From IMG/VR virus record IMGVR_UViG_2851933302_000006: 16,351 nt of DNA; one strand, given 5' to 3'. This stretch comes from a virus. Lineage: Duplodnaviria; Heunggongvirae; Uroviricota; Caudoviricetes. Shown one piece after another: positions 10,981-13,664 of this stretch (within the stretch, counting starts at the first letter, position 1; every line of letters starts with the position of its first letter). The notes under the pieces were generated by a model. That model saw only the letters and a list, made by a program, of their open reading frames with translations, had not been told where the DNA came from and made no database searches. Both the position numbers and the translations under genes were made by a program.

Positions 10981-11687
10981 TGTCTGAAATCACCCATATC
11001 CGTGCAGTATATAGGCCTGCCAGAAAAGCAGTTCAGTATTCTTCATTTTGTAGTCGATGGTCCCAAGTTTGCTCTGGCTGGAAGCTGCATCGTCCACATT
11101 ACGTGGGCAGGGTGGTTTCGCTATGCTACTTGAACGTTTTGACCATGTGGCTCAGGTAGCTAATATCAAAAGACGTCATTTTGTCTCCACGCCCACCTTG
11201 GTGAACATTCAATAAATAGTTTCGGTCGAGAGCAGTTATGTAGGGCTAGCAGACGAGATGCGCAGACATCTTGTTGAAGACAATTTTACTGACCACCTGA
11301 GAACGCTATTCTACCGAATAATATTTATTATCTTGGTGAATAATGATGATTACCTGTGTAACTATGGTTTTATGCTGATGGGACCGGCAGTACAATTTCT
11401 GTAGTGTACTCGCAATTTCAGGTCTCTGGCGTTTATTCTGGTGCAAAGGAGGTATGTGATGAAAACTTTGCTACCATGCCATTAAATGCGACCAATATCG
11501 GATTATCCATCAGTTGATTGTTGTAGATTTCATTGGTTATAAAAATGCAAGGTGTAAAAGATGAAATTTATAATTATTAGTTAAGTGGCTAGTTTTATAG
11601 TAATTTAGACAATAGGATGTATGGAAAAATGGAAAAAGTTTATGATACCACTAGAATTAGTAATCTTGCTAACGACCCGAAACAGTT

Positions 11688-13664
11688 TTGTTCTTTTTTT
11701 GTGAGTACATAAAAAGAGATGATATTAGTATAGATATCGCCTTGGATGTGCTGAGAATATCTTCCATCTATTATAATAGATTTTCAGTTCAGACTGAAGT
11801 TGAGTATAACAATACATTCAAAAAATGTATTAATGAGCTAGTAAACTCATTTCCTGATAACATTGAACTAATCTCTGAGTTCGAGAGTCAATGTAAAATT
11901 ATGCATGATATAAATAATTCTTTCTTTGCGGCTACAAAATGTGCTGGTATTTGGCGTAAAAATACAAAAAAATCACATGCATTAATACTTAATCTCATCA
12001 TGTTTTGTGAGATGTTTTTATCATCATTATCATCCTTGGTTGTGGTCAATGATCCTAAAAAAATGAAGAGGATTTTTCCATTATTTATCGTTTCTGAAAA
12101 TATTAATATTCATGCTGAACCTGATATCGAATGTTTTCGAGTTATCGATAGGGCATTTGATGAGGTAGCCAATTACACCGGAAGAATATTTTCTTATTTA
12201 CGGACTCATGGGCCATTGAAACTAACTTCTTGTGTGAATAAACAAACCTTGCTTTCAATGGGAGGGTACCTTAATGAGTGGAATGTTTTTGACTCATTAA
12301 GCAGAGTAAGAGACTTTTTCAGACTAAGTAGTGCAGTATTTACAAAATTGGATAATAACATTTACTCTCTTGAGGTTGATAGTTTTTGTTTATACCGAGA
12401 TTATGAGATTGCAAGAAATAGACTAATGATGAGAGCGTCACATCTATATAGCGAAGTTCATGAATTTAGTAACAAACATTTTCATCTAAATAGTTGGGTA
12501 AAGGATCATATGCCATCTTACTTAAATTCTGATGGCGTTTTTAGCTCATTTCATCTAAGCGAGTTGGAAAATATGTCTCCTGATGACCTTCATGAAGAAT
12601 ATGGGAATATATCATTATTTAATTGGGTGCACGCTTATCAATGTTTAGTCGAGTTATCTAAAGAAGAAATGAGCAAAAGATTTTCATCGACAAAACCTAT
12701 ACCCCTACAGTTGGATCGCTGGCTGATCATAAAAAGCCGTGAGAGTTGGTTATCATTCTTTCAACGTAAGGGGATTGCAGCAGATGCAGCAAAAAAACTG
12801 ATAGATTATTTTACCTTCAATTCAAAATCACATGATCTTAATGATTGCCCATTTATTCCCTGTATGGACGGTTTATGCTTAATGCCTGCATTAATAGCAA
12901 ATAGCTCAGTGACTCGCTCTCTAATGTCATTATTTGGTTCCAAAAAAATTTCTCAAGCAAGTAAAGGGCGATTTCATGAGCAACAATTTATAAAACGAGT
13001 TCGTGATGCGGGGATTAAAGCTTCTCCAATTGATGCTCATGCTAATTATCAGTGTGATTGCGTGATTCTCCTGGATGATTGTTTGATTTTTACAGAACTA
13101 AAATCAAATGGTCAACCAATATATTATGGTAAGTACTATCAGCAAGTGTGTAACATCGTTGGAGATAGCTCATTAATACATGATCATAATAATAAATTTA
13201 TGCGTTCTTATTTTCAACAAATAAATCGAATTTCTGAACATTATCTTAATCATCTTGATGTGATCATTAAAGAATTCGAACTACCATCAACATGGCAACC
13301 CAAAGGTGTGTATAAGCTTATTGTTACTACAACTATGCTCGGTGGGAAATATCATGTGGATGATACATATGTAGCGGATAAATATGCATTATCTAGTTTT
13401 TTTCAACGAATACCTGGAGTGATATATCAAACAAATGAAAATGGAAAAATGGCGAAAAATATCATTGATGGGTTTGAGTGTTGCGAAGGGGAAATCACTA
13501 TCGATAAGTTTATAGATTATCTTTCCTCTTTGCCCAGTATTAATGCTGTACGTAAAAATATAAAAAAATTAACTTATAGTGTTCGATTTAATGAAAAATT
13601 AGTCCATCACCCTTATTATGATTCTTGGGCTTTTGGTCCATATATTCGTAAGGGAAATGATTAG
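11688..13664 (+). CDS. Large AT-rich hypothetical protein with a PD-(D/E)xK-like motif. The start is uncertain (TTG in the track; possible frameshifted upstream ATG at 11629).
   Basis: 658-aa ORF with no in-frame ATG for about 70 codons. The motif CDCVILLDD-CLIFTELK (about 13045–13110) has hydrophobic strand-D then hydrophobic strand-E-x-K. Composition is very AT-rich versus its surroundings. A strong hairpin terminator follows the stop. Confidence 0.6.
   Translation: MFFFCEYIKRDDISIDIALDVLRISSIYYNRFSVQTEVEYNNTFKKCINELVNSFPDNIELISEFESQCKIMHDINNSFFAATKCAGIWRKNTKKSHALILNLIMFCEMFLSSLSSLVVVNDPKKMKRIFPLFIVSENINIHAEPDIECFRVIDRAFDEVANYTGRIFSYLRTHGPLKLTSCVNKQTLLSMGGYLNEWNVFDSLSRVRDFFRLSSAVFTKLDNNIYSLEVDSFCLYRDYEIARNRLMMRASHLYSEVHEFSNKHFHLNSWVKDHMPSYLNSDGVFSSFHLSELENMSPDDLHEEYGNISLFNWVHAYQCLVELSKEEMSKRFSSTKPIPLQLDRWLIIKSRESWLSFFQRKGIAADAAKKLIDYFTFNSKSHDLNDCPFIPCMDGLCLMPALIANSSVTRSLMSLFGSKKISQASKGRFHEQQFIKRVRDAGIKASPIDAHANYQCDCVILLDDCLIFTELKSNGQPIYYGKYYQQVCNIVGDSSLIHDHNNKFMRSYFQQINRISEHYLNHLDVIIKEFELPSTWQPKGVYKLIVTTTMLGGKYHVDDTYVADKYALSSFFQRIPGVIYQTNENGKMAKNIIDGFECCEGEITIDKFIDYLSSLPSINAVRKNIKKLTYSVRFNEKLVHHPYYDSWAFGPYIRKGND

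Follow-up and report, generated by a model that had tools for sequence, protein, structure and literature searches.

A frameshifted copy of a widespread, unnamed PD-(D/E)xK nuclease gene beside a P4-like satellite at leuX, and its possible role in defence

Of the 41 defence hotspots described in E. coli, the locus of the tRNA-Leu gene leuX, hotspot #37, is the most occupied (PMC12707154). In the stretch of 16,351 nt analysed here (the window; IMG/VR virus record IMGVR_UViG_2851933302_000006, Caudoviricetes), a large AT-rich gene lies at this locus next to a P4-like satellite, and it raises the question of what such a gene encodes and whether this copy can still be expressed. From the letters of the sequence it had been described as a 658-residue orphan gene with a PD-(D/E)xK-like nuclease motif, possibly a single-gene defence or abortive-infection effector. 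The answer proposed here is that it belongs to a widespread, unnamed family of proteins of ~650-690 amino acids (aa), which would act as single-polypeptide sensor-plus-nuclease effectors against phages or other mobile elements, and that the copy in the window is inactivated or leaky. We hold this answer with about as much belief as doubt.

The long open reading frame (ORF) ending at 13664 on the + strand is real and appears in the ORF list of the window, but its start and length were misjudged since a frameshift had been overlooked. The span first assigned to the gene, 11617-13664, is 2048 nt long, which is not a multiple of three, and its frame meets a stop after 31 codons; the 658-aa ORF begins in a different frame, at a TTG at 11688. 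From comparison of homologues, the native gene in most E. coli carriers encodes 678 aa and starts at an ATG corresponding to 11629, with the N-terminus MEKVYD. The 678-aa protein of most E. coli copies opens with MEKVYDTTRISNLANDPKQFCSFFCEYIK, and more distant relatives start at the same point. A T tract near the 5' end consists of seven residues in the window (T7) and of eight in intact copies (T8), that is, one nucleotide is deleted. The frame from the ATG closes at 11712 after 27 codons, and native residues 25-678 read on from 11700 in the -1 frame. A translation with the missing T restored deviates from an intact protein (P0001) at two residues. The RefSeq coding sequence in strain UTI89 covers only 11901-13664 and is annotated as a hypothetical protein of 587 aa (WP_001555776.1). 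As read directly from the sequence, a convincing ribosome-binding site is absent before both TTG 11688 and ATG 11901. On this comparison, the 658-aa ORF is an artefact of the frameshift and not a native protein, and both it and the RefSeq coding sequence are truncations of the 678-aa gene.

The distribution of the alleles was surveyed in 5426 complete E. coli genomes, 336 of which (about 6%) carry the locus. The exact intact 82-mer with T8 was found in 206 of these carriers, and the exact 81-mer with T7, the allele of the window, in 52, including APEC O1. For example, the tract is T7 in UTI89 and 14EC020 as in the window, T8 in O145 RM9872, whose intact protein is WP_000416999.1, and in 2009C-3133, and T9 in SCU-115. 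Further lesions near the 5' end are a G insertion in four genomes, a G insertion together with T9 in one genome, and T7 with an extra single-nucleotide polymorphism in a strain whose leuX site is empty. The DNA of the window is that of E. coli, positions 10915-16351 being 99.98% identical to UTI89, and the region of the gene is matched at 100% by several independent assemblies of UTI89 and by IHE3034 and NU14. Because the exact T7 81-mer recurs in 52 complete genomes and the 100% matches come from independent assemblies and strains, the deletion can be regarded as genuine and not as a sequencing error.

What the deletion does to the protein follows from its position. The first 24 codons are cut off, no convincing ribosome-binding site lies downstream, and the residues lost or mis-framed by T7 fall in confidently modelled helices (see below); for these reasons the copy in the window is most likely inactivated, or leaky at most, with the full-length protein made in trace amounts at most. 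We infer one route by which such traces might arise: a -1 slip on T_TTT_TTT in the T7 allele, or transcriptional slippage, would regain the exact wild-type CSFFCEY. Among IMG/VR viral contigs the gene gave three hits, all of them satellite or prophage calls from E. coli that apparently overrun the leuX attachment (att) site, and a search made for the Bacillus relative found no viral contig. In the E. coli viral contig record UViG_2617271340_000008 of that database, the match to the 678-aa protein at 10001-12256 extends over 2256 nt instead of 2034, which suggests an insertion within that copy of the gene.

The label of orphan does not fit the protein. With a cut-off of E <= 1e-3, a profile search of 1.84 billion cluster representatives (50% clustering) yielded 360 relatives, nearly always 600-700 aa long; with E <= 1e-10 it yielded 182. 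The relatives from Salmonella share 75% identity and form a cluster of ~3,000 sequences. Other relatives in the Enterobacterales come from Izhakiella, Xenorhabdus, Pectobacterium and Pantoea, and those in the Bacillaceae and Clostridia from Bacillus, Peribacillus, Lysinibacillus, Cytobacillus, Priestia and Ruminiclostridium. In an alignment of 85 full-length diverse relatives with ~20% identity to the E. coli protein (residues are numbered as in the native 678-aa protein), P408, G447, D477, E490, K492 and D584 are invariant, and D403, D406, P420, S434, E451, Q531, R534, R594 and G621 are conserved in at least 90% of the sequences. Conservation is highest in the nuclease core and the domain ahead of it, and lowest in the N-terminal region and the C-terminal tail. 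The motif CDCVILLDDCLIFTELK is found intact in the window, and so are all the catalytic residues.

An AlphaFold model built on this alignment reached a predicted local distance difference test score (pLDDT) of 92.8 and a predicted template-modelling score (pTM) of 0.91; a first run with 7 close homologues had given a pLDDT of 50 and was not usable. In the model, residues 1 to ~360 are all-helical, residues 361-444 form a small alpha/beta domain, and an alpha/beta subdomain closes the C-terminus. Between them lies a core in the order alpha-beta-beta-beta-alpha-beta, in which E451 stands in helix 446-460, D477 in strand 475-482 (beta2) and E490 and K492 in strand 485-492 (beta3), followed by helices and two more strands. 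The modelled fold and the motif together place the family in the PD-(D/E)xK superfamily, and a metal-dependent nuclease activity is predicted. The middle domain may resemble a winged helix, judging by the order of its helices and strands only. Thus, the nuclease core anticipated near ORF residues 450-480 is borne out by the modelled fold and by the invariance of D477, E490 and K492 in the 85 relatives. The motif from which it had been proposed, VILLDD...LIFTELK, was correctly read as to the ExK and its place in the core, but not as to the aspartate. The catalytic aspartate would be D477 in 'CDC', which sits 13 residues before the ExK as in other nucleases of the same fold, and not one of the LLDD pair, of which the first, D483, is invariant only among the 7 closest relatives.

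Named families were sought at several levels. The protein of the window gave only a chance PHB_depo_C hit against Pfam and no match against NCBIfam or PHROGs, and its sole hit in PADLOC was a candidate domain, PDC-M29B, over 50 residues (442-491 of the 658-aa ORF; E = 1e-3). When 70 relatives were scanned (Pfam hits at E <= 0.1), sub-threshold matches appeared to NERD in 21 (best E = 1e-5), to Card1_endonuc in 8 and to Mrr_cat in 4, and the PADLOC model CARF_PDDEXK, named for the CARF-nuclease class, was matched by 13. Sequence searches of the PDB, started from the single protein or from profiles of 7, 85 and 21 sequences (the last covering only the C-terminal half), found no relative. Foldseek with the model gave no significant hit, the best being E 0.16 in the PDB and 0.13 among viral structures; Can2, Card1, VC1899 and Cdn1 are among these non-significant structure hits. 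The protein accessions gave no mention in the literature, nor did a literature search for a system named at this site. The original prediction had likewise not recognised the family, and Pfam, NCBIfam, PHROGs and PADLOC offer no named one; with no paper or defence database model found to cover it, the family appears to be without a name.

The surroundings of the gene in E. coli bear on its origin and possible role. The coordinates of its parts and of its neighbours are collected in Table 1.

Table 1. Parts of the gene and neighbouring features, in window coordinates
Feature	Position	Strand	Basis
24-nt copy of the tRNA-Leu (leuX) 3' end	10917-10940	+	Homology to empty-leuX strains begins here and maps to the last 24 nt of the annotated tRNA-Leu
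Untranslated leader, leuX/att to gene start, 688 bp	10941-11628	+	Spacing of ~690 bp after tRNA-Leu likewise in RM9872 and 2009C-3133
5' stub: residues 1-24 of the native protein, MEKVYDTTRISNLANDPKQFCSFF, then out of frame via VST to a stop	11629-11712	+	Translation; matches the N-termini of the intact 678-aa proteins P0001 and P0022
T7 homopolymer (T8 in intact alleles)	11694-11700	+	Allele comparison
658-aa ORF with TTG start; native residues 25-678 from 11700	11688-13664	+	ORF list, translation
Rest of the N-terminal domain, modelled as all-helical, residues 25-360	11700-12707	+	Most variable region, no recognisable fold relative
Middle domain, modelled as alpha/beta, residues 361-444, motif D403-x-x-D406-C-P408	12708-12959	+	Conservation and AlphaFold model
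Predicted PD-(D/E)xK core, residues 445-595	12960-13412	+	E451 12978-12980, D477 13056-13058, E490 13095-13097, K492 13101-13103; also Q531, R534, D584
Variable C-terminal subdomain, modelled as alpha/beta, residues 596-678, and stop codon	13413-13664	+	Model and conservation
Terminator-like hairpin, then TCTAATTTTTTT	13687-13745	+	Starts 23 nt past the stop codon
Phospholipase D-like gene remnant	13780-14062 (approximate bounds)	-	~84% DNA match to the phospholipase D-like gene and brxL of TK3896 and O111:H8 strains
brxL remnant, last 58 residues only	14063-14242	-	PADLOC BrxL E = 1.5e-18, profile positions 623-680 of 680; incomplete coding sequence in UTI89
Phosphorothioated-DNA-binding HNH restriction endonuclease	14287-15159	-	NCBIfam NF045808 E = 1.2e-131, Pfam HNH_2, RefSeq annotation

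The gene had been placed just outside the boundary of the satellite, and the 24-nt fragment of the leuX 3' end, which marks the att, agrees with this. On comparison between strains, the fragment is where the P4-like satellite ends with its right att site and where a variable islet has its left edge: UTI89, whose leuX carries a different island, is homologous from 10915 onwards, and the variable segment runs from the att site to 14276, with homology to strains lacking the gene resuming at 14277. A tRNA scan of the window found no complete tRNA, intact leuX lying beyond its left end. Where the leuX site is empty, the intact gene stands 690 bp after the tRNA-Leu. As to composition, the gene has a GC content of 0.329, against 0.487 in the restriction gene, 0.483 in nanS and 0.502 in the satellite, which confirms that it is markedly richer in AT than all of them. 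Composition and the comparison with strains without the gene both show horizontal acquisition of the gene, which came as an AT-rich islet of ~3.3 kb immediately following leuX, in line with the separate acquisition suggested before. Of the flanking elements proposed earlier, the leader has the expected length of about 700 bp but is AT-rich (GC 0.35) only in its last ~250 bp, with 0.40 overall, and promoter-like matches in it are not above chance. The terminator with a perfect 20-bp stem was found as described: a perfect inverted repeat of 21 nt (13687-13707 and 13710-13730) folds into an AT-rich stem of 20 bp closed by a 4-nt loop, and a run of T comes after it (RNA dG -24.4 kcal/mol, z = -6.9).

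Defence genes accompany this site in several strains. The HNH restriction enzyme (NF045808) is the conserved right-hand neighbour of the islet and is present in 4105 of the 5426 genomes. Between the terminator and this enzyme lie two remnants, a fragment of a phospholipase D (PLD)-like gene and the last 58 codons of brxL, and in strains carrying BREX a PLD-like gene adjoins brxL; from these remains, a BREX cassette appears to have stood in this slot and to have been deleted since. In strain TK3896 a complete type 1 BREX is still present in the same slot, together with AbiE, a PLD-like gene and a PDDEXK nuclease of its own. This BREX-linked 'PDDEXK family nuclease' was considered as a relative of the protein studied here and rejected (hhalign probability 0.2%). 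The slot holds McrBC and a type I restriction-modification system in JNE132847, and in O145 RM9872 a type II Zorya system adjoins the locus, following the gene. To the left of the att, the satellite consists of the integrase, Psu, Delta, Ash, the alpha primase, and C4 and isrK RNAs, and carries a complete Kiwa system on the - strand in its cargo hotspot between integrase and psu (KwaB 1324-2217, PADLOC E = 6.5e-117; KwaA 2226-2741, E = 1.6e-76).

Outside E. coli the gene is always solitary and occupies a different site in each genus, and no partner gene is conserved across the contexts examined. With E. coli counted in, canonical defence systems lie within 10 kb in 5 of 12 independent contexts, which is suggestive but a small sample with no matched control set that is to be read qualitatively. 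For example, one relative has a type I restriction-modification system, Lamassu and PemK in its context, and in Peribacillus a restriction-enzyme-like gene and a PbeA-like PLD-helicase are found. The homologue of Lysinibacillus xylanilyticus is flanked by an integrase at smpB on one side and by a full BREX system on the other. The Priestia context is an island with a Gabija-like pair of OLD-ATPase and UvrD and with PLD and DEAD/MZB genes. In Ruminiclostridium and Bacillus the gene lies just beyond the lysis module of prophage-like elements, in Pectobacterium near an integrase and Vsr, and on one metagenomic contig near the antitoxins CcdA and TacA. The neighbourhoods in Izhakiella, Xenorhabdus and Pantoea are ordinary housekeeping ones or contain type VI secretion system effectors.

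Some observations on these contexts stand by themselves. BREX near the Lysinibacillus homologue and the brxL remnant by the E. coli gene are only two cases, which may be coincidence or a recurrent association. In Bacillus sp. FSL M8-0077, the neighbours at the prophage end, of 842 and 432 aa, have neither a Pfam annotation nor a PADLOC match, and in Priestia endophytica about nine consecutive genes inside the Gabija-containing island are without Pfam annotation; such genes in Bacillus and Priestia may be further defence cargo.

The defence-island setting claimed for the gene is therefore upheld by its neighbours in the leuX hotspot and by the defence systems near some distant relatives, and it is from this neighbourhood only that we infer a role in defence or abortive infection. 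By analogy to Upx, Shedu and the CARF-nucleases, the nuclease would be kept inactive by the variable helical N-terminal domain until a cue derived from the invader is encountered. The conserved middle domain, with its DxxDCP motif and winged-helix-like order, might help to bind nucleic acid, and the Mg2+-dependent core, once released, would cut the nucleic acid of the invader or of the host, both steps again being modelled on known enzymes. Several points weigh against such an effector. Seven of the 12 contexts have no canonical defence system within 10 kb, and several lie simply among housekeeping genes. That the N-terminal domain acts as a sensor is suggested by its variability and by analogy, and no defence-system model covers the protein, the PDC-M29B domain match (E = 1e-3) being all that PADLOC gives. 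The frameshifts near the start, present in about 17% of E. coli copies, fit a gene of low value equally as well as a costly defence gene.

On a rival view the gene has no defence role at all: it might serve mobile DNA as a selfish or maintenance nuclease, be it as an addiction toxin or in homing or recombination, or it might be a decaying passenger that stands in hotspots only because foreign DNA lands there. A solitary AT-rich gene at a different chromosomal site in each genus, often beside integrases, transposases, prophage ends or toxin-antitoxin genes, would look like this, and the contexts without canonical defence genes and the recurrent frameshift alleles in E. coli (T7, G insertion, T9 with G insertion) are in agreement. 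However, full-length architecture and catalytic residues are kept between phyla at ~20% identity, an argument that selection has been maintained on the protein as a whole. In addition, the gene has no conserved antitoxin or immunity partner and is accompanied by neither terminal repeats nor a recombinase, and the 5' end is intact in most E. coli copies (at least 206 of 336). On balance we consider this view unlikely.

A solitary restriction endonuclease, of type IV or similar to type II, would read a modification or sequence directly and cut incoming DNA, needing neither an infection trigger nor abortive infection. The fold is common to Mrr, McrC, FokI and N.BspD6I, and this account would also explain the Mrr_cat hits in 4 of the 70 relatives and the winged-helix-like order of elements modelled for the middle domain. 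In E. coli the gene adjoins a phosphorothioate-dependent restriction enzyme, and its slot holds McrBC elsewhere; its neighbourhoods show no conserved cognate methyltransferase, in keeping with an enzyme that depends on modification. We nevertheless regard it as a decidedly unlikely explanation, and keep to a triggered sensor-plus-nuclease effector as the preferred one. Improbable, too, is an RNA-targeting NERD nuclease like ZwsA, which would cut phage RNA genomes or transcripts and not DNA: its reported Pfam families VHS, DUF647 and S4 are matched by none of the 70 relatives scanned, and none of 285 sequences compared has its residue positions, ZwsA being compared by description only. A more specific version of the effector is a new single-protein immune system, a half-size 'mini-Upx', in which the helical N-terminus, of no known fold, would sense a phage component and free a NERD-like nuclease, the T8 tract 66 nt into the gene would serve as a contingency switch, and T7 lineages would keep a costly nuclease leaky; we offer it as a long shot.

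If the intact allele protects against phages or plasmids, a compact single-gene system would be added to the defence repertoire, with a sensor domain without structural precedent, and a gap in the annotation of the E. coli defence hotspot with the highest occupancy would be closed. Extraintestinal and avian pathogenic E. coli of the ST95 type (UTI89, APEC O1) carry the frameshifted allele, so that a protective role of the gene could contribute to those differences in phage susceptibility that matter for phage therapy. Even if the gene does nothing, its annotation is corrected to a gene of 678 aa.

A few further features of the window were recorded beside the gene. The Kiwa cargo of the satellite is likewise AT-rich (GC 0.35), and between the Kiwa genes and psu this AT-rich cargo includes an ORF of 103 aa (2939-3250, - strand) that no Pfam or PADLOC entry matches. 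Rfam models place the C4 antisense RNA, its a1/b1 target and isrK at 6313-6589 (+ strand), which are the RNAs that a P4-type satellite should have for immunity. Two neighbouring ORFs at its right end (10434-10922, + strand) have very similar N-termini (…FTLH.IFT.Y.TEIK.E.RKVNSVN…), which indicates a direct DNA repeat just inside the att, possibly a repeat for replication or packaging. Beside the HNH enzyme, 15241-15363 (+ strand) is what remains of the C-terminus of a second HNH endonuclease; 2009C-3133 has this second enzyme in full length (216 aa).

Among known systems, the closest precedent is Upx, a single-protein PD-(D/E)xK defence system (Gao et al. 2020; structure 9wuf). Its domains have been described, and it is monomeric and loses defence when the ExK is mutated (PMC13099982). 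It is activated by the phage large terminase, and its sensor is modelled to thread unfolded beta-strands of the terminase (bioRxiv 10.64898/2026.04.30.721860). The C-terminal PD-(D/E)xK module modelled here is structurally similar. However, Upx has 1272 aa in three domains with a second, simplified nuclease at the N-terminus, while the native protein at leuX has 678 aa with an N-terminal 360 aa modelled as all-helical. Membership in Upx was rejected, given the half size, no PADLOC Upx hit for the protein or the 70 relatives, and no PDB chain found by profile.

NERD (Pfam PF08378) is similar in the catalytic region, where relatives align to profile positions 1-95 of 111, and two relatives are labelled 'NERD domain-containing' in UniRef. 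Membership was again rejected: the protein of the window and P0001 gave no hit at E <= 1, and two relatives scored 16.3 and 18.2 bits against a gathering cut-off of 22.1 bits. NERD also differs in having neither the DxxDCP module nor the 360-aa helical domain. By these profile comparisons, the family is related to NERD but too divergent to be recognised as part of it. ZwsA (Zowangsin) of P. aeruginosa, a stand-alone NERD protein, cuts the RNA of RNA phages (bioRxiv 10.64898/2026.04.06.716636). It shares with the present family the design of a stand-alone multidomain defence protein, a similar size, the arrangement E...D-x12-E-x-K and the occurrence in defence islands; besides the accessory families already mentioned, undetected in the present family, it differs in that its catalytic residues lie, by description, ~90 residues further from the N-terminus.

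The CARF-nucleases Card1, Can2 and Cdn1 of type III CRISPR systems belong to the same PD-(D/E)xK effector subtype and likewise have a regulatory domain ahead of the nuclease, but the gene studied here is without CRISPR or cyclase neighbours. CARF/SAVED effectors (Card1, Can2, Cap4) were rejected as its class, with no CARF or SAVED Pfam match in the protein or the 70 relatives and an N-terminal half modelled as helical. Shedu (SduA) was rejected as well, its DUF4263 being matched by none of the 70 relatives and PADLOC giving no Shedu hit. Uncharacterised PD-(D/E)xK genes are common in defence islands; what would distinguish this one is its wide spread, a putative sensor domain of unknown fold and a frameshifted allele in a clinically relevant lineage.

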